A DNA stretch of 57,125 bases, taken from positions 1-57,125 of the forward strand of contig DAOTKE010000002.1 in the NCBI GenBank assembly GCA_035449085.1, written 5' to 3'. Each line of letters starts with the position of its first letter. Position 1 is the stretch's first letter. A program made the position numbers and the translations under genes. Of the stretch, positions 31,865-37,786 are shown piece by piece. The notes beneath the pieces were generated by a model. The model did not search any database. It saw only the letters and a program-made list of their open reading frames with translations, and had not been told where the DNA came from. This stretch comes from Kiritimatiellia bacterium. GTDB taxonomy: Bacteria; Verrucomicrobiota; Kiritimatiellia; RFP12; UBA1067.

Positions 31865-31892
31865 TGGACGTTCGATGTTCGACGTTCGGCGT
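31865..31892 (-). repeat. degenerate heptad tandem repeat immediately 3' of the AKR stop codon
   Basis: TTGGACG TTCGATG TTCGACG TTCGGCG on the plus strand. On the minus strand this reads CGCCGAA CGTCGAA CATCGAA CGTCCAA, followed by TTTAC. Confidence 0.4.
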
Positions 31893-32773
31893 TATCCGGC
31901 TCGGCCCCACAGCGCCGGGCGGACCAGCGGCTCCGGCAGGTCGGGCACGCACGCCTGCACGCGGCCGAGCACCGCCGCCGGCAGCGGCCCCAGGGCGGCC
32001 ACGCGCAGGTTCTCGCGCATCTGCTCTGGCGTGTCCACTCCGGTCAACACGCTCGCGACTGCCGGATTGGACAGCACGTAGCGCATGCAGAGTTCAGCCA
32101 TCGTGCAGCCGGCCTCGCGCGCCACCGCCTCCAGGCCGCGCCGAACCGGAATGACTGTAGACAGGTTCGGGCGGATGCGCGCTTCCGGCATCAGCAGCAG
32201 CCCCTGCAGATAGACGCTCCGGGCGAACACATGAATCTTCTTCTGTATCGCCACGGGCCAGAAGGCCTCGAAGCGGCGGTCCAACAGGTTGCAGGGAAGC
32301 TGAAGGTAGCGCACGGTTGCCGCCTCCGCCAGAAAGCGGTCACTGTCCAGCGACACCCCCACCCCGTCCGTCAGCCCGCGCCCCACCATCTTCTCCAAGA
32401 GCGGAAGACGGCGCAGGTCTTCTTCGCGGTGCAGCAGACAGACGGCCAACCGTTCAAGCCGCAGACGCCGCAACGACTCGCGGATGGAACTTTCAATGAA
32501 GCGCTCCGCCTCGGCATCGGCACCATCCGGAATGGGCGGGACTTTGCTGACCACCGTCATCGCCTCGCGCAACCCGAGCCGATCCAGCGCGGCGCCCAGC
32601 ACCTCCTCGCTCGTTCCATACGCGGCGGCTGTGTCCAGCGCGCTCACGCCGCCCTCGAAGGCCGTCTTCACGATTTCGCAGACGCGGTCAAAAGAGGGCT
32701 TGCCCGCGACATTCGCGATCCCATACTCCAGACCGAACTGTACCGTCCCCAGCATCAATCTCGAAAATTGCAT
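31892..32773 (-). CDS. aldo/keto reductase
   Basis: MQFSRLMLGTVQFGLEYGIAN..., AKR TIM-barrel pattern. ATG 32773 with GGAGG upstream. The ORF track start 32845 lies inside the repeat. Confidence 0.85.
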   Translation of the reverse strand: MQFSRLMLGTVQFGLEYGIANVAGKPSFDRVCEIVKTAFEGGVSALDTAAAYGTSEEVLGAALDRLGLREAMTVVSKVPPIPDGADAEAERFIESSIRESLRRLRLERLAVCLLHREEDLRRLPLLEKMVGRGLTDGVGVSLDSDRFLAEAATVRYLQLPCNLLDRRFEAFWPVAIQKKIHVFARSVYLQGLLLMPEARIRPNLSTVIPVRRGLEAVAREAGCTMAELCMRYVLSNPAVASVLTGVDTPEQMRENLRVAALGPLPAAVLGRVQACVPDLPEPLVRPALWGRAG

Positions 32774-32786
32774 CCCGACCTCCAAA

Positions 32787-32944
32787 CCAACGCGGGCGAA
32801 GCCCGCAACCCAATTCAATCTCACACAAAGGCACAAAGGCCACAAAGGCTTCTTTTAAAACGGCATCCACCTTCGTGCCCTTCGTGGCTTCGTGTGAGAA
32901 ACAACTTGTTTTTTATTGCTGGTGTTGGTTCGTAAGGCACTAAC
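32787..32944 (-). repeat. 158-bp repeat, copy 1 (5' of the AKR gene)
   Basis: Identical to 34909..35066 by direct comparison. Contains hairpin 32819..32899 and the GCGGGC-gaa-GCCCGC stem at 32792..32806. Confidence 0.95.
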
Positions 32945-33161
32945 GCAGACGGAGCCCACCACCTGAAATTCTCACCACGAAGTCACTAAGACCCCGACAT
33001 ATTGTTAAATGCCTGCTGTTCCCTCTCTCTGTGATCAAGTGATTAAACCACAGAGGCACGGAGACACGGAGGCTTTTTGCATCACCCTTCCTCACCTCTC
33101 TTCGTGCCTTTCGAATCTTCGTGGTGCAACCACCTCTCGCGCTGCAGAACTTGAGAACTTC

Positions 33162-33947
33162 TCACTTCGCCGTATACCCGCCGTCCACCGGGATGTTCGT
33201 GCCGGTCAGATAACAAGAGGCGTCCGAGGCCAGAAACACGACCGCGCCTTTCAGATCGCTGTCATTGGCCAGCCGCCCCAGCATCGTGTTGGCACTGTAG
33301 TTCTTGATGAACGCCTCGGGCTGGTTGTTCAGGAAACCGCCCGGATGGAGTGCGTTGACGCGAATGCCGAACGGCCCCAGCACACTCGCCGCGAACCGGG
33401 TGAAATTGACCATGCCGCCTTTTTCGAAAAAATAGATCGGCGAGGGCGTCTTCATCATCTCGGTGCCGACGTAATTCAGCGGATCAGGTCCGCGCAACCC
33501 CATATATGAGCCGATGTTGATGATCGAGCCGGACTGATGCCGCTTCATCAACTCGGCCGCCAACCGCGTCAGGCAGAAGAGCGCCGAGCCGTTGACATGC
33601 AGACTCCGGTCAAACACTGCCATCGGCTGGTCCCAGTCCGCGCACGCGCAGCGTGTCACCGCGTTGTTGACCAGCACGTCCAAGCGCCCCCACCGCCGTT
33701 CAATCTCCGTGATCAGCGCATGAATCGACGCTTCGTCCTCCAGGTCCAGCGGCAGCGCCGTCACGTCGCCGCCAACGGCGCGCAACGTTTCGGCCACCTT
33801 CTCCAGCTCGGCGACGTTGCGTGATGCGATCACCGTCACGGCACCCGCCTCGGCCAACGCCTCCGCGAGCTGGCGTCCGTACAGTCCGGCCCCGCCGGTC
33901 AGCAGCGCCACCTTACCGTTCAGCGAAAAACTTTCCAGCACATTCAT
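33162..33947 (-). CDS. SDR-family oxidoreductase
   Basis: KVALLTGGAGLYG (TGxxxGxG), NNAV, YFFEK (YxxxK). Its ATG overlaps the upstream stop (ATGA). Confidence 0.88.
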   Translation of the reverse strand: MNVLESFSLNGKVALLTGGAGLYGRQLAEALAEAGAVTVIASRNVAELEKVAETLRAVGGDVTALPLDLEDEASIHALITEIERRWGRLDVLVNNAVTRCACADWDQPMAVFDRSLHVNGSALFCLTRLAAELMKRHQSGSIINIGSYMGLRGPDPLNYVGTEMMKTPSPIYFFEKGGMVNFTRFAASVLGPFGIRVNALHPGGFLNNQPEAFIKNYSANTMLGRLANDSDLKGAVVFLASDASCYLTGTNIPVDGGYTAK

Positions 33948-34888
33948 AGCATGACCTCCCTTCCGCCGCGTGCACGACTTTCGATTCCCGCGATCACCAG
34001 CCGCATCAACTCTTCGGTATGGCTGAACGGATAGGGACGAACGCCGCTCCGCAGATACCCGATGAACGCCGCGAGCTGCGCCTTGAAGGACGCGAAGGTG
34101 TCTTTCGTCACGACCGTCGCGTTGCCGGACGCGCCGCACAGCGTCATGGCACCGCCGTACACCATGCCGGTGCCGCACGCGATCACCACATCCGCACCGC
34201 AACGGTGCTTCAGATGCACCACGTTCCGTTCCGCCGTACCGGTGTTACGCACCGACACATAGCCCGGCCCCGTAATGCTGTAGACCGCCTCGAGCGCGTG
34301 AATGCCATACGTCTCCCACTTTTTCGCCATGGGCATGGCGATGAATCGCCACGCGCCCAGCGGCGCGTTGGGGGCCTGAAACGGCGCGTATTCGGCGGCA
34401 TAGCGTGTAGAACTGGAGGACAGGATCGCCGCGCCGTCCGCCACCCAGCGCTGGAACTGCGCCAGATCCGCCGCCGTGTCGCACAGCGGTTTGTCAATGA
34501 AGAGCGGCACGCCCGCCTCCACAAAGGGACGCGCACGCCGCACATGCTCACCGCCGATGTCAGTCGCAATCAGCACCGCATCGACTGCGCCAATCAGCGC
34601 TTCCGGCGTCTCCGCGACGTGCGGGATATGCGACAGCGCCGCCACATGCTCCGCGTCGCTGCGCGCGTCGCAGAACACATGCGTGACGCGCGCGCCCGCG
34701 ATCCCGAACGCTTCGGGCGGCTGGAGGTTCAGATAGCCCGGAATGCCCGGGAAAGGGCACTCCGCCGTCATACGAGCACGGTCGTAACCGTTCAAGATCG
34801 CGCTCCACGAATAGGGATGCCCGTTGCCTTCGGTCATCCCGATCACACCCAGCCGGATGTCATTCGCATCTCTCACGACTGCACGCAT
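33944..34888 (-). CDS. Gfo/Idh/MocA-like oxidoreductase (atypical N-terminal motif)
   Basis: IRLGVIGMTEGNGHPYSWSAI. ATG 34888 preceded by AGGAGAGGAG. Confidence 0.78.
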   Translation of the reverse strand: MRAVVRDANDIRLGVIGMTEGNGHPYSWSAILNGYDRARMTAECPFPGIPGYLNLQPPEAFGIAGARVTHVFCDARSDAEHVAALSHIPHVAETPEALIGAVDAVLIATDIGGEHVRRARPFVEAGVPLFIDKPLCDTAADLAQFQRWVADGAAILSSSSTRYAAEYAPFQAPNAPLGAWRFIAMPMAKKWETYGIHALEAVYSITGPGYVSVRNTGTAERNVVHLKHRCGADVVIACGTGMVYGGAMTLCGASGNATVVTKDTFASFKAQLAAFIGYLRSGVRPYPFSHTEELMRLVIAGIESRARGGREVML

Positions 34889-34908
34889 ACCTTCTCCTCT
34901 CCTAACTC

Positions 34909-35066
34909 CCAACGCGGGCGAAGCCCGCAACCCAATTCAATCTCACACAAAGGCACAAAGGCCACAAAGGCTTCTTTTAAAACGGCATCCACCTTCGTGC
35001 CCTTCGTGGCTTCGTGTGAGAAACAACTTGTTTTTTATTGCTGGTGTTGGTTCGTAAGGCACTAAC
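34909..35066 (-). repeat. 158-bp repeat, copy 2 (5' of the Gfo/Idh/MocA-SDR pair)
   Basis: Identical to 32787..32944, offset 2122 bp. Hairpin at 34941..35021. Confidence 0.95.
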
Positions 35067-35068
35067 TC

Positions 35069-37786
35069 CTAATTCCTAATTCCTAACTGCTTCCCGCCCC
35101 GCCACACCAGTCCCTCGATCCCGGTTTTCCTGTTAGGGCACACCACACTCACCACCAGCGCGACCACCAGGCAGGTGACGATGCCAATCGCCCCATACAG
35201 GAGCAGATGCGGTTTCCAAGACAGCGAGACGGCGTCCAGCCCGATGCACACCACGTAATTCGCGACCAATCCACACAGTGCCGCCATCGCACCCACACGT
35301 GGTGCAAAAATCCCCAACATGAAGAGGCAGGCCAGACCGCTGGTCAGAATACCGATGAATTTCAGAAACTGGTCATAGACCGCGCGGATGTCGATATTGG
35401 CCAAGATCAGTGCGCCCGCCATGCCGGCCAGACCGACCGCCACGGTGCAGCCTTGCGCAATGCGCACCTGCGCGCGGTCGCCGGTCGCGCCGCGCCGCAG
35501 CCTGACGAACCAATCGCCGGTGATCGCCGTCGCCGATGAATTCAGATTGGCCGCCAGCGTGGTGATCGTCGCGGCGAAAAGGCCGGCCAGCACAAGGCCG
35601 GCCGCTCCGACCGGCAGCTCGTGGGTCATGAACATCGGCAGGATGGAATCCGCTTTGGGCATGGTCACCGCGAGGCGTTCAGGATGGGACCGGTAATAGG
35701 TGAACAAGGCGGTGCCGATGCTGAAGAAAATCGCGCCGGTGCCGATGCCCAGCGGCACATTGAGCCAGAGGCTGCGGCCGGCCGCGCGCACGTCGCGGGT
35801 GGTCATGTAGCGCTGGATCACGCACTGATCGCTGGTGTAGGAGATCAGGCACTCCGCCAGCCCCCCGATCAGCACGACCCAGATCACCGGGCGAGAGAAA
35901 TCGAACGCGGCGTCGATCATGCGGAGCTTGCCGGCTCCGCCGGCCGCCGCGGCCACGCCCGCGACACCGCCGTCGCTGCCGGCCGCCAGCAGCACAAGGA
36001 TCAACAGTGCGCCGCCCAGCAGCACCGCCCCCTGTACCACGTCGCTCCAGATCACGGCTTCGATGCCGCCGAACGCGCAGTACACGATCGTCAGCAGACA
36101 GACCGCCACGATGCACGCATTGACATCGGCACCGGTCGCGGCAGAGACCGCCAGCGCGGGCAAATAGGCCACGACCGCCACGCGCGCCACCATGAACAGA
36201 TTGAAGGCCAGGCTCGCGAACAGGCGGCACGCGAGATTGAAGCGCAGTTCGAGATACTCGTAGGCGCAGGTGAGATTCAATTTGCGGAAGAACGGTAGAT
36301 AGCAGCCGATCACCAGCGGCGGGATCAAGGCGATGCAGGCGCATTTGGGGGCGTAGCGCCAGTCCGACATGTAGGCCAGCGCCGGCACCGCCAGAAACGT
36401 GATCGAACTGAACATCGCCGCGAAGATGCTGATGCCCGCCGCCCACCACGGAATGCGCCCCCCGCCCTTGAAGTAATCGTCGGCGCTCTTTTTCTTGCGC
36501 ATGAACCACCCGCCCATCACGGCCAACCCACAGAAATATCCGCCCATGACCGCCCAGTTGACAGGGTGGAACCTACGGCGCGCGACAAACCGTCCGACTG
36601 CGCACAGCGGCGTGCGGACGCCGGGCTGCACCTCGCCCGACGCCAGCAGGATGTCCCCGTTCGCGCGTCTGATCGCCGCGCCCGCCACAGTCGGCGGAAA
36701 CGGCACCTCGCCCAGTTCAAACCAGCGGTCGGTGACCGTGTGGTAAACGAGCGCGTTACGGTTCCAGGTTGTCGGCAGGGTGGATTGATAGGCGATGCGC
36801 TGCGCCTCGCGCGCCGCGCCCGTGAGCGTCGCCATCTTGCGCTGGTTATCGTCGAAATAGGCCGCGTCCAGCCCGCCGAAGAACAGCACATGCTGATCGC
36901 CGACTGTCACACACGTTGCGCCGATCAGCGGCCATGCCGCCGCCGGGGACGCGGACGATCCGTCCGCAACAGGCACCGCCGCCGCAATCGGTCGCCAGAC
37001 ACCGGCGTGATCCGGCTGCGCCAGGTCATACACATACCCATCCGTCAGTGCCACCCATCCGCCATCCGCATGCTTGGCATATCCGCCGACCACGTACAGG
37101 CACGTCCGTTTCTGGTCGCCGTTCTGAACGAAGGCCTGCGCCTGCATGCGCCCCTTGACGCCCGGCAGCGGCGGCAACGCGCGCCAGCCTTTTTCCGGCG
37201 CATCAAGATCCAGCCGCCACACGTCGCTGGACAGCTTGTCAGTCCCTTCGCCGCCCGCCACAAACACCAAGGACTCCCGCGCCGCCGCCGCGCCCAGCCG
37301 TGTTGGGCAAGGGAAATCCGGCAGCGCACGTTCCACCGCTTGACCGCGCACGCCGTCCCAAGTCAACAAAAACGCACGTGCGGAGGTCTCGCCATCCGTC
37401 GCACCGCCGACACACGCGATCCCCTTGCCTGTCGTGGCCGACACGCCCTCCGCGACCGGTCGCGACAGCCGTCCGGCGGCCACCCAGTTCGTGCTGCCTG
37501 CGGACAACGCGACGATATCGGCGCAGTACCGTTTGGGGCCGCCCACCAGCAGCGGCGCTTCCGGAAAGTTTGAGCCGCCCGCCAGCAGAGCGACACCGTT
37601 ATGCTCCCCGTAAAACGGCGCACCCACACCGATCGCTGGACGGCCAGACGGCTGCTGCGGCAGGCCGAACCCTTCAGACCATTCCAGCGTGACCGGCGGG
37701 CTGCCGCGTGTCGCGCCCGGCGCGAACAACAATAAAACTCCCGTCGCCATCAACGCGCCTGACAGGCTGAAACCCTTTTTTGACAT
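35069..37786 (-). CDS. fusion protein: NanM/YjhT-like Kelch mutarotase domain + sodium:solute symporter (SSS)
   Basis: Signal peptide MSKKGFSLSGALMATGVLLLFAPGA. About 430 aa of beta-propeller (GGSNFPEAP..., repeated GG/W blades), then about 13 TM helices with the SSS pattern. Alternative ATG at 37819. Confidence 0.82.
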   Translation of the reverse strand: MSKKGFSLSGALMATGVLLLFAPGATRGSPPVTLEWSEGFGLPQQPSGRPAIGVGAPFYGEHNGVALLAGGSNFPEAPLLVGGPKRYCADIVALSAGSTNWVAAGRLSRPVAEGVSATTGKGIACVGGATDGETSARAFLLTWDGVRGQAVERALPDFPCPTRLGAAAARESLVFVAGGEGTDKLSSDVWRLDLDAPEKGWRALPPLPGVKGRMQAQAFVQNGDQKRTCLYVVGGYAKHADGGWVALTDGYVYDLAQPDHAGVWRPIAAAVPVADGSSASPAAAWPLIGATCVTVGDQHVLFFGGLDAAYFDDNQRKMATLTGAAREAQRIAYQSTLPTTWNRNALVYHTVTDRWFELGEVPFPPTVAGAAIRRANGDILLASGEVQPGVRTPLCAVGRFVARRRFHPVNWAVMGGYFCGLAVMGGWFMRKKKSADDYFKGGGRIPWWAAGISIFAAMFSSITFLAVPALAYMSDWRYAPKCACIALIPPLVIGCYLPFFRKLNLTCAYEYLELRFNLACRLFASLAFNLFMVARVAVVAYLPALAVSAATGADVNACIVAVCLLTIVYCAFGGIEAVIWSDVVQGAVLLGGALLILVLLAAGSDGGVAGVAAAAGGAGKLRMIDAAFDFSRPVIWVVLIGGLAECLISYTSDQCVIQRYMTTRDVRAAGRSLWLNVPLGIGTGAIFFSIGTALFTYYRSHPERLAVTMPKADSILPMFMTHELPVGAAGLVLAGLFAATITTLAANLNSSATAITGDWFVRLRRGATGDRAQVRIAQGCTVAVGLAGMAGALILANIDIRAVYDQFLKFIGILTSGLACLFMLGIFAPRVGAMAALCGLVANYVVCIGLDAVSLSWKPHLLLYGAIGIVTCLVVALVVSVVCPNRKTGIEGLVWRGGKQLGIRN

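Follow-up and report, generated by a model that had tools for sequence, protein, structure and literature searches.

Within a stretch of 57,125 nucleotides from a Kiritimatiellia bacterium (assembly GCA_035449085.1, contig DAOTKE010000002.1, positions 1 to 57,125; referred to here as the window), two identical repeats lie directly upstream of an aldo/keto reductase (AKR) gene and of a gene pair encoding a Gfo/Idh/MocA-type oxidoreductase and a short-chain dehydrogenase/reductase (SDR). With a probability of about 80%, both repeats arose from separate, recent insertions of a non-autonomous mobile element of 153 nt. The window belongs to a metagenome-assembled genome (MAG) of 3.27 Mb in 218 contigs with a completeness of 82%, labelled G000. 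A repeat search of the window identified one 158-nt direct-repeat family at 32787-32944 and 34909-35066 with 100% identity and a spacing of 2122, exactly as an earlier first-pass annotation of this DNA had described it. The same annotation had placed the copies 13-20 nt upstream of minus-strand start codons, which agrees with codon-usage gene calls combined with Pfam: the AKR start codon (32773) is 13 nt from copy 1 and the start codon of the GFO_IDH_MocA gene (34888) is 20 nt from copy 2.

The boundaries of the element were obtained from orthologous loci of sister species. For copy 1 (32787..32939, minus strand), the orthologous site in the relative G005 (L080) is empty and reads CCTCCAAA^CTAACGCAGACGG, and the filled site in the window reads CCTCCAAA[CCAAC...AAGGCA]CTAACGCAGACGG. 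For copy 2 (34909..35061, minus strand), which has the same sequence, the empty sites in G003 (L077) and G001 (L078) read ...CTCCTAACTC^CTAAATCCTAAT... and the filled site reads ...CTCCTAACTC[CCAAC...AAGGCA]CTAACTCCTAAT.... As these empty sites fix both boundaries, the element is 153 nt long. On the minus strand, hereafter strand S, copy 1 reads 5'-TGCCTTACGAACC...GCGGGCTTCGCCCGCGTTGG-3', and the general organization on S is 5'-[host TTAG]^TGCCTTAC...long hairpin...GCGGGC-TTC-GCCCGC-GTTRG^-3'. Seven other copies (C67, C106, C104, C155, C64, C139, and C20) are likewise missing from the orthologous sites of sister species; these sites were recovered with queries consisting of the joined flanks, and the matches cross the junction without the element. 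The empty sites of C155, C64, and C139 hold an exact single CTAA, those of C106 and C20 lie inside arrays of a heptamer, and those of C67 and C104 have a diverged tetranucleotide in the sister genomes. One extra CTAA at site C104 is not explained.

On S, the element is always located immediately 3' of a host TTAG, it is found in one orientation only, and its own 3' end is GTTAG or GTTGG. In the window, the target tetranucleotide (CTAA on the plus strand) is at 32940..32943 for copy 1 and at 35062..35065 for copy 2, and at the empty G005 site of copy 1 it is present once. Across 80 distinct copies, the TTAG target is conserved to 70-83% per position, the tetranucleotides at the two ends vary independently of each other, and nothing outside them is conserved. 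A conventional cut-and-paste miniature inverted-repeat transposable element (MITE), moved by a DDE transposase such as an IS5-like enzyme with the target YTAR that duplicates CTAA, could account for the CTAA...CTAA flanks of most older copies and for empty sites with one CTAA. However, a comparison of the copies revealed no terminal inverted repeats, and the six youngest copies, which are 99-100% identical, have CCAA at the end contributed by the element but CTAA on the host side, with CTAA at the host sites before insertion. Together with the lack of correlation between the end tetranucleotides, this CCAA/CTAA polymorphism rules out CTAA as a target duplication and leaves a DDE-type MITE very unlikely. 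Nine loci with empty sites and the alignment of 80 copies indicate insertion 3' of a fixed tetranucleotide in one orientation without target duplication, a property of palindrome-associated transposable elements (PATEs).

Two kinds of sequence are favoured as insertion sites because they supply TTAG, namely the ends of older copies and heptamer arrays of the type (TCCTAAY)n. Copy 1 is inserted exactly at the left end of an older, degenerate relative of the element on the minus strand (32940..about 33135), which is also carried by G005 and is recognizable by CTAACGCAGACGGAGCCCAC...CACGAAG hairpin words in the alignment of the window with L080; the direct-repeat family D3 covers this region (32940-33135). 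The target of copy 2 lies inside a heptamer array, and the adjoining (TCCTAAY)3 at 35067..35087, which is not assigned to a strand and reads (RTTAGGA)n on minus, extends across the stop codon of the gene that precedes copy 2. Altogether, 11 of about 30 copies are located in or beside such arrays. G000 contains 44 of them, all intergenic, of which 14 adjoin element copies and 30 are not associated with the element. The arrays consist of 2-5 units in both orientations, are often found beside start or stop codons and also occur at window 34900-34908; in sequence, they are similar to Shine-Dalgarno motifs and to the GTTRRRY core discussed below. In several cases, the gene upstream of a copy ends with the TAG of the target as its stop codon.

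The repeat is not confined to the window. In G000 itself, 45 BLAST matches were found, about 25 of them near full length, on many contigs and in several cases at contig ends. As a member of a multi-copy family, the repeat is far from being a chance occurrence. Two subfamilies can be distinguished. Subfamily A comprises 7 copies with a mean pairwise identity of 98.9%, both window copies included, and subfamily B comprises 13 copies, of which the 11 with a length of exactly 158 nt average 99.2% identity. The subfamilies are 99% identical over 132 nt apart from a module of 13-15 nt near one end, which is replaced wholesale; in the window, this module is at 32919..32933 (copy 1) and 35041-35055 (copy 2) on the minus strand and reads GCTGGTGTTGGTTCG in subfamily A and GTGCTTGTCGAGCCG in subfamily B. 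Judged from the aligned copies, this pattern looks like a module swap and not like drift. In the youngest A copies, the end of the element (GTTGG on S) is exactly complementary to the CCAAC within module A.

Beyond G000, BLAST detected the family in 24 of 41 relatives. A survey with a covariance model built from 26 copies detected it in 32 of 61 genomes and 16 of 27 genera of the taxonomic family, and presence and absence alternate within genera. Copy 1 matches the covariance model R1 with 191.7 bits. An exact 31-mer of the element was found in public records that, with few exceptions, are Kiritimatiellia MAGs. The relative G006, a long-read genome with a completeness of 92% in 20 contigs, holds at least 60 element matches (61 at E <= 0.01). 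A literature search found nothing on Kiritimatiellia repeats. The search of the genome and its relatives for further copies, which the first-pass annotation had proposed as a check, revealed a dispersed family with dozens of copies. Among the roles that had been considered for the repeat, that of a small non-autonomous repeat element is strongly supported by these dispersed copies, by the empty sites in sister species, and by the patchy distribution.

An assembly artefact, in which a contig segment was duplicated or collapsed, might be suspected from the perfect identity of the two copies, from a length above typical k-mers, and from the other copies at contig ends. However, both copies have unique flanks that are collinear with sister genomes lacking only the 153-nt insert, so that on the compared sequences an artefact is unlikely in the extreme. 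The same comparison rejects a composite transposon carrying the Gfo-SDR pair, because the genes of this pair are found in sister genomes in which a single one of the two sites is occupied; G001, G003, and G005 all have the pair but lack either one copy or the other. As each copy is missing in a different sister genome, the Gfo-SDR pair is, to judge from these loci, ancestral and not cargo of the two copies. It is possible that the 153-bp copies serve as substrates for deletion or duplication of the pair.

Each copy can form two hairpins, as had been stated in the first-pass annotation. RNA folding confirmed both hairpins, and it also confirmed that pairing of the long one is better on the minus strand, where it has 29 pairs and the fold gives -64.5 kcal/mol with a z-score of -5.0. 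On the plus strand, the long hairpin has 25 pairs, and the corresponding values are -50.5 kcal/mol and -2.9. The long hairpin spans 32819..32899 in copy 1 and 34941-35021 in copy 2, with the arms of copy 1 at about 32819-32849 and 32869-32899, and the three A-C mismatches of the plus strand are indeed G.U pairs on the minus strand. Three octamer-like units make up each arm, with CACGAAGG on S paired to CCTTTGTG. In some copies, a complete unit has been lost from one arm, and in one copy both arms are affected by such a loss. The small GC hairpin (GCGGGC-GAA-GCCCGC; 32792..32806 in copy 1, 34914-34928 in copy 2, minus strand) is located five nt from the 3' end of strand S. A further hairpin at the 5' end is found in subfamily B only, and it does not resemble the conserved 3' GC hairpin. 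The A-rich/T-rich tract beside the stem is nearly invariant.

Further support for these structures comes from covariation among the 80 distinct copies, which stem from about 25 genomes and were aligned to the covariance model. Standard pairs occupy 91.1% of the pair cells compared to 86.1% in shuffled alignments, and 28 of 42 pairs have changes on both sides, including 22 of 29 in helices 3 and 4. Such changes on both sides are found in 139 cells compared to 46 +/- 5 in the shuffles (0 of 500 shuffles reach 139), a count that overstates the number of independent events as many copies share ancestry; when the 3' partners were slid, the number dropped to 25-43 cells. Examples of covarying pairs are UA 51 / AU 24, CG 68 / GC 6, and AU 66 / GC 9. 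In the small hairpin, 96.6% of cells are paired, with a compensatory change of CG (70) to UA (5). The wobble pairs are distributed asymmetrically, with 273 G.U cells on S versus 63 A.C cells, the latter corresponding to G.U on the opposite strand. G.U, G:C, and A:U are the states found at the three repeated unit positions, where 109 G.U cells contrast with 4 A.C cells. As the alignment was fitted to the S-strand model, these counts lean slightly towards S, and like the counts of changes on both sides they exceed the number of independent events. The earlier claim that the structure matters on the minus strand, for which covariation had been named as a check, is thus not only borne out but extended by the compensatory changes and by the G.U versus A.C asymmetry.

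The wobble asymmetry marks one strand as the functional single strand, but it is silent on whether this strand is RNA or DNA. In the first-pass annotation, it had been taken as an argument for a transcribed RNA structure. This conclusion is not compelling because a single-stranded DNA (ssDNA) intermediate predicts an equal asymmetry, and the orientation of the copies does not support it either. Of the 37 copies flanked by co-directional genes, 22 have S as the sense strand and 15 have it as the antisense strand (14:6 in G000, 8:9 in relatives), and this bias of orientation relative to gene strand is not significant. In addition, the better-folding strand is the one that defines the insertion polarity 3' of TTAG. 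An ssDNA transposition intermediate is therefore favoured, since S is not consistently the sense strand, orthologous leaders lack the element, and the better-folding strand sets the polarity.

A dedicated cis-regulatory element of the 5' untranslated region (5'-UTR), riboswitch-like or protein-binding and common to AKR and Gfo-SDR, was another role suggested in the first-pass annotation. It would fit the position just upstream of two oxidoreductase genes and the conserved sense-strand structure. Nevertheless, dozens of copies are found beside unrelated genes, in either orientation and also following stop codons, and the insertions are recent and lineage-specific, with element-free leaders in sister species. 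In addition, a search of the window against Rfam at gathering and permissive thresholds gave no hit to threshold but only chance matches to miRNA-like hairpins, the best one to a plant miRNA model with E = 0.12. A gene-specific role of this kind is thus largely refuted and has to be regarded as highly improbable.

An exapted RNA role is a different matter. In this case, an S-sense element within an operon would act as mRNA stabiliser, processing site, or translational modulator, and in the opposite orientation the stem followed by UUUUUUAUU could terminate transcription. Both window copies are S-sense between co-directional genes and 13-20 nt from Shine-Dalgarno sequences, the fold of S as RNA is very stable with the values given above, the wobble asymmetry favours S, and the tract flanking the stem is nearly invariant. 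On the other hand, 15 of the 37 copies between co-directional genes are antisense, the element is absent from the orthologous leaders of sister species, no Rfam family matches, and a consensus scan of the element was negative for promoters and yielded a terminator-like site only in cases in which T residues of the flank contributed to it. An exapted role as explanation of the structure thus seems rather unlikely, albeit less so than a dedicated one. From the predicted fold and the gene order, S-sense co-transcribed copies, probably including both window copies, would place a very stable hairpin in a polycistronic mRNA. REP, ERIC, and Correia elements are analogues with reported effects on mRNA stability, processing, or translation, and by analogy similar effects of this hairpin are plausible; a dedicated regulatory role for AKR or Gfo-SDR is not indicated.

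For the mobile element itself, the mechanism that agrees best with the fixed polarity and the single-strand constraint, and to which we assign about even odds by analogy, would be an excision and insertion of the S strand as ssDNA by an HUH (Y1-type) transposase. This enzyme would be supplied in trans, in the manner of the PATEs of the IS200/IS605 family of insertion sequences (IS) and of REPINs, which are formed by repetitive extragenic palindromic (REP) sequences, and the conserved hairpins would be its recognition structures. The underlying ssDNA logic is modelled on IS608, ISDra2, and their PATEs as well as on REPINs (PMC3597680, PMC3201880, PMC6006769, PMC3116915).

Orientation-specific insertion without duplication at a short conserved core, combined with a strand-asymmetric hairpin, would also be expected from a site-specific recombinase, either an IS110-like DEDD enzyme or an integron-like tyrosine recombinase. 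The core consensus of integron attC sites is GTTRRRY, and the RTTAGGA heptamers are similar to such core sites, GTTAGGA matching 6 of 7 positions of this consensus. However, the ends of the element are direct repeats and not the inverted R'' (RYYYAAC) and R' (GTTRRRY) boxes of attC, which pair at the base of the hairpin. An exchange at G^TT would furthermore place the element-borne TTGG on the side opposite to the one observed. Genes for IS110 enzymes are sporadic; they are missing in the near-complete G006 despite its element matches and present in two element-free genomes, which speaks against IS110 as the source of mobility. Taken together, a recombinase of either type is improbable.

The search for an enzyme in G000 and its relatives yielded several candidates for an autonomous partner, none of which could be linked to the element. 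Y1_Tnp genes were found in 7 of 7 genomes tested, including G000 and G006 but also two element-free ones. One of them encodes a protein of 341 aa resembling REP-associated tyrosine transposases (RAYTs). Homologues of this RAYT-like Y1 gene with >=70% identity are found in 16 genomes, all of which are element-positive, and in 0 of 29 element-free genomes. The protein has 95-96% amino acid identity between genera, which suggests a recent horizontal transfer. The gene is multi-copy, with in-frame stops in some copies. As parent of the element, this C75-type gene was rejected, because it is part of a separate IS200-like unit with other ends, located at about 7985-9450 on C75 of G000 (L196), on C415 of G010 (L191), and on C507 of G009 (L183). 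The left end of this unit is CAAAGGGACAGGTCTTTAG... and its right end a GCGGATTGG/CCAATCCGC subterminal hairpin. A second Y1 gene (328 aa; C6:33599-34719 of G000) was rejected because 25-bp inverted repeats, ATGTCTAATGTCAAACTACGACCCC, form its ends. Shortened versions of this C6-type unit (about 170-310 bp), which have lost internal sequence but kept both ends, are found at C35:16788-17100, C157:4731-5038, and C48:4330-4502, and the element copy at C1:20541-20697 is inserted at CTA(A/C) of a C6-type end.

An autonomous partner was not detectable by structure either: G000 contains no paired element ends 0.5-6 kb apart and no multi-copy IS. Longer elements in G006, which have the same ends and could have been such a partner, contain nested hairpin modules but no genes. 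TnpB (PF07282) is absent in 16 genomes, and no TnpB gene is present in G006. IS91-type Y2 enzymes were excluded as they occur in only 3 of 8 element-rich genomes, at loci without similarity to the element.

Several of these results weigh against a mobile element of the proposed kind. No transposase could be linked to the element in the searches of G000 and its relatives. The RAYT-like gene belongs to a separate IS200-like unit of about 1.5 kb, the ends and the target or flank of which differ from those of the element, and the co-occurrence of this gene with the element is confounded by phylogeny. The 5' and 3' ends of the element appear to lack the similar hairpins of IS608-type elements. Finally, no replication-strand bias is detectable, the GC skew on S being positive for 17 copies and negative for 11 (p = 0.34).

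In comparison with known systems, the element is closest to the PATEs of the IS200/IS605 family and to the 'peel-and-paste' transposition of IS608, which inserts 3' of TTAC (PMC3597680, PMC3201880, PMC10055086). As with these systems, it is short and non-coding, has no terminal inverted repeats, and creates no target duplication; it is inserted in one orientation directly 3' of a specific tetranucleotide, TTAG instead of TTAC, a related tetranucleotide that directly follows a subterminal hairpin forms its 3' end, and the structural constraint is on one strand. It differs in that no parent IS with matching ends is found in G000, where the ends are not shared with any autonomous IS encoding a Y1 TnpA, and in that TnpB is missing from the 16 genomes. 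In addition, the long central hairpin built from octamers dominates the element, and no lagging-strand bias is detectable.

REP/REPIN-RAYT systems (PMC3116915, PMC3337134) have in common with the family that the repeats are abundant and intergenic, measure about 100-150 nt, and form hairpins, that a short, conserved motif at the head adjoins a GC hairpin, and that RAYT-like Y1 genes occur in the same genomes. In contrast to REPINs, the element has no GTAG head but a TTAG/CTAAC head, and its arms are three tandem octamers and not two inverted REP palindromes. While the RAYT of REPINs is single-copy, vertically inherited, and flanked by the repeat, the RAYT-like genes found here are multi-copy and horizontally transmitted, with an element copy within 300 nt at 4 of 16 loci and no fixed arrangement.

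Size (100-160 nt), intergenic location, frequent co-transcription, and long hairpins are reminiscent of the Correia elements of Neisseria, the ERIC sequences of enterobacteria, and the RUP and BOX elements of pneumococcus, which may likewise occupy the space from a stop codon to the following Shine-Dalgarno sequence. These elements have the terminal inverted repeats and TA duplications that are characteristic of DDE-type MITEs, both of which are lacking in the element described here. Altogether, it represents an undescribed family that behaves like an HUH-mobilised PATE or REPIN but for which neither a parent IS nor a regularly flanking RAYT was found.

Related repeats suggest that the family is not alone. 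At G006 loci L058-L069 (e.g. C4:114438-114840 and C17:826619-827014), the element ends enclose 200-400 nt, with further GC-rich hairpin modules embedded in the loop, such as those with GGGAGGGGCAAGCGTCTGCTTGCCCGCGGACGAGCGACGCTCGTCCCTCCC and CTCTGCGTCTCTGCGTTAAA words, and genomes such as G006 contain several families of octamer-built repeats. A sibling element at G000 C75:8068-8200 (L196) has kept the A-rich and module segment, but its arms consist of CGCGAAG instead of CACGAAG units; it is missing from the otherwise 96%-identical G010 locus. In G023, eight family copies with about 75% identity to the window copy are found within about 40 kb (C32:9800-48060), a density far above that found elsewhere. 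It is tempting to speculate, with considerable doubt, that the family and its octamer-built siblings may constitute an undescribed kind of single-strand-mobilised element with a long octamer rod, a terminal GC hairpin, and a swappable A/B module for partner or site specificity. It might be driven by the horizontally moving RAYT-like Y1 protein of ~340 aa and would then represent a partnership resembling REPIN-RAYT systems, of new architecture, in the Planctomycetes-Verrucomicrobia-Chlamydiae (PVC) superphylum.

All genes surrounding the two copies are encoded on the minus strand. Downstream of copy 1 is the AKR gene (31892..32773; PF00248, E 8.7e-35). The SDR gene (33162-33947; PF13561) and the GFO_IDH_MocA gene (33944-34888; PF01408) are located between the copies, and upstream of copy 2 is a fusion gene encoding a NanM-like domain and a sodium:solute symporter (SSF) domain (35069..37732; PF24996 and PF00474), whose stop codon is the one overlapped by the heptamer array. 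Synteny with G003 (L077:1-718) breaks exactly at the SDR stop codon at window about 33162. The spacer appears to be a rearrangement point, because G003 has other sequence in place of the AKR gene and the repeat-rich spacer.

According to this analysis, a striking perfect repeat is the product of ordinary genome dynamics, and caution is needed before such hairpins are annotated as riboswitch-like leaders. The result is an undescribed repeat family, defined with base-level boundaries and a covariance model, which fragments MAG assemblies of Kiritimatiellia and marks recent intragenomic activity. Insertion of this element is TTAG-specific, duplication-free, and fixed in orientation, and its structure is strand-asymmetric, yet there is no recognisable IS605-type parent. 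For this reason, the family is a tractable case for identifying the HUH enzymes by which REP-like DNA is mobilised in bacteria other than Proteobacteria. Its copies within operons also provide a natural test of the effects of inserted hairpins on operon expression.

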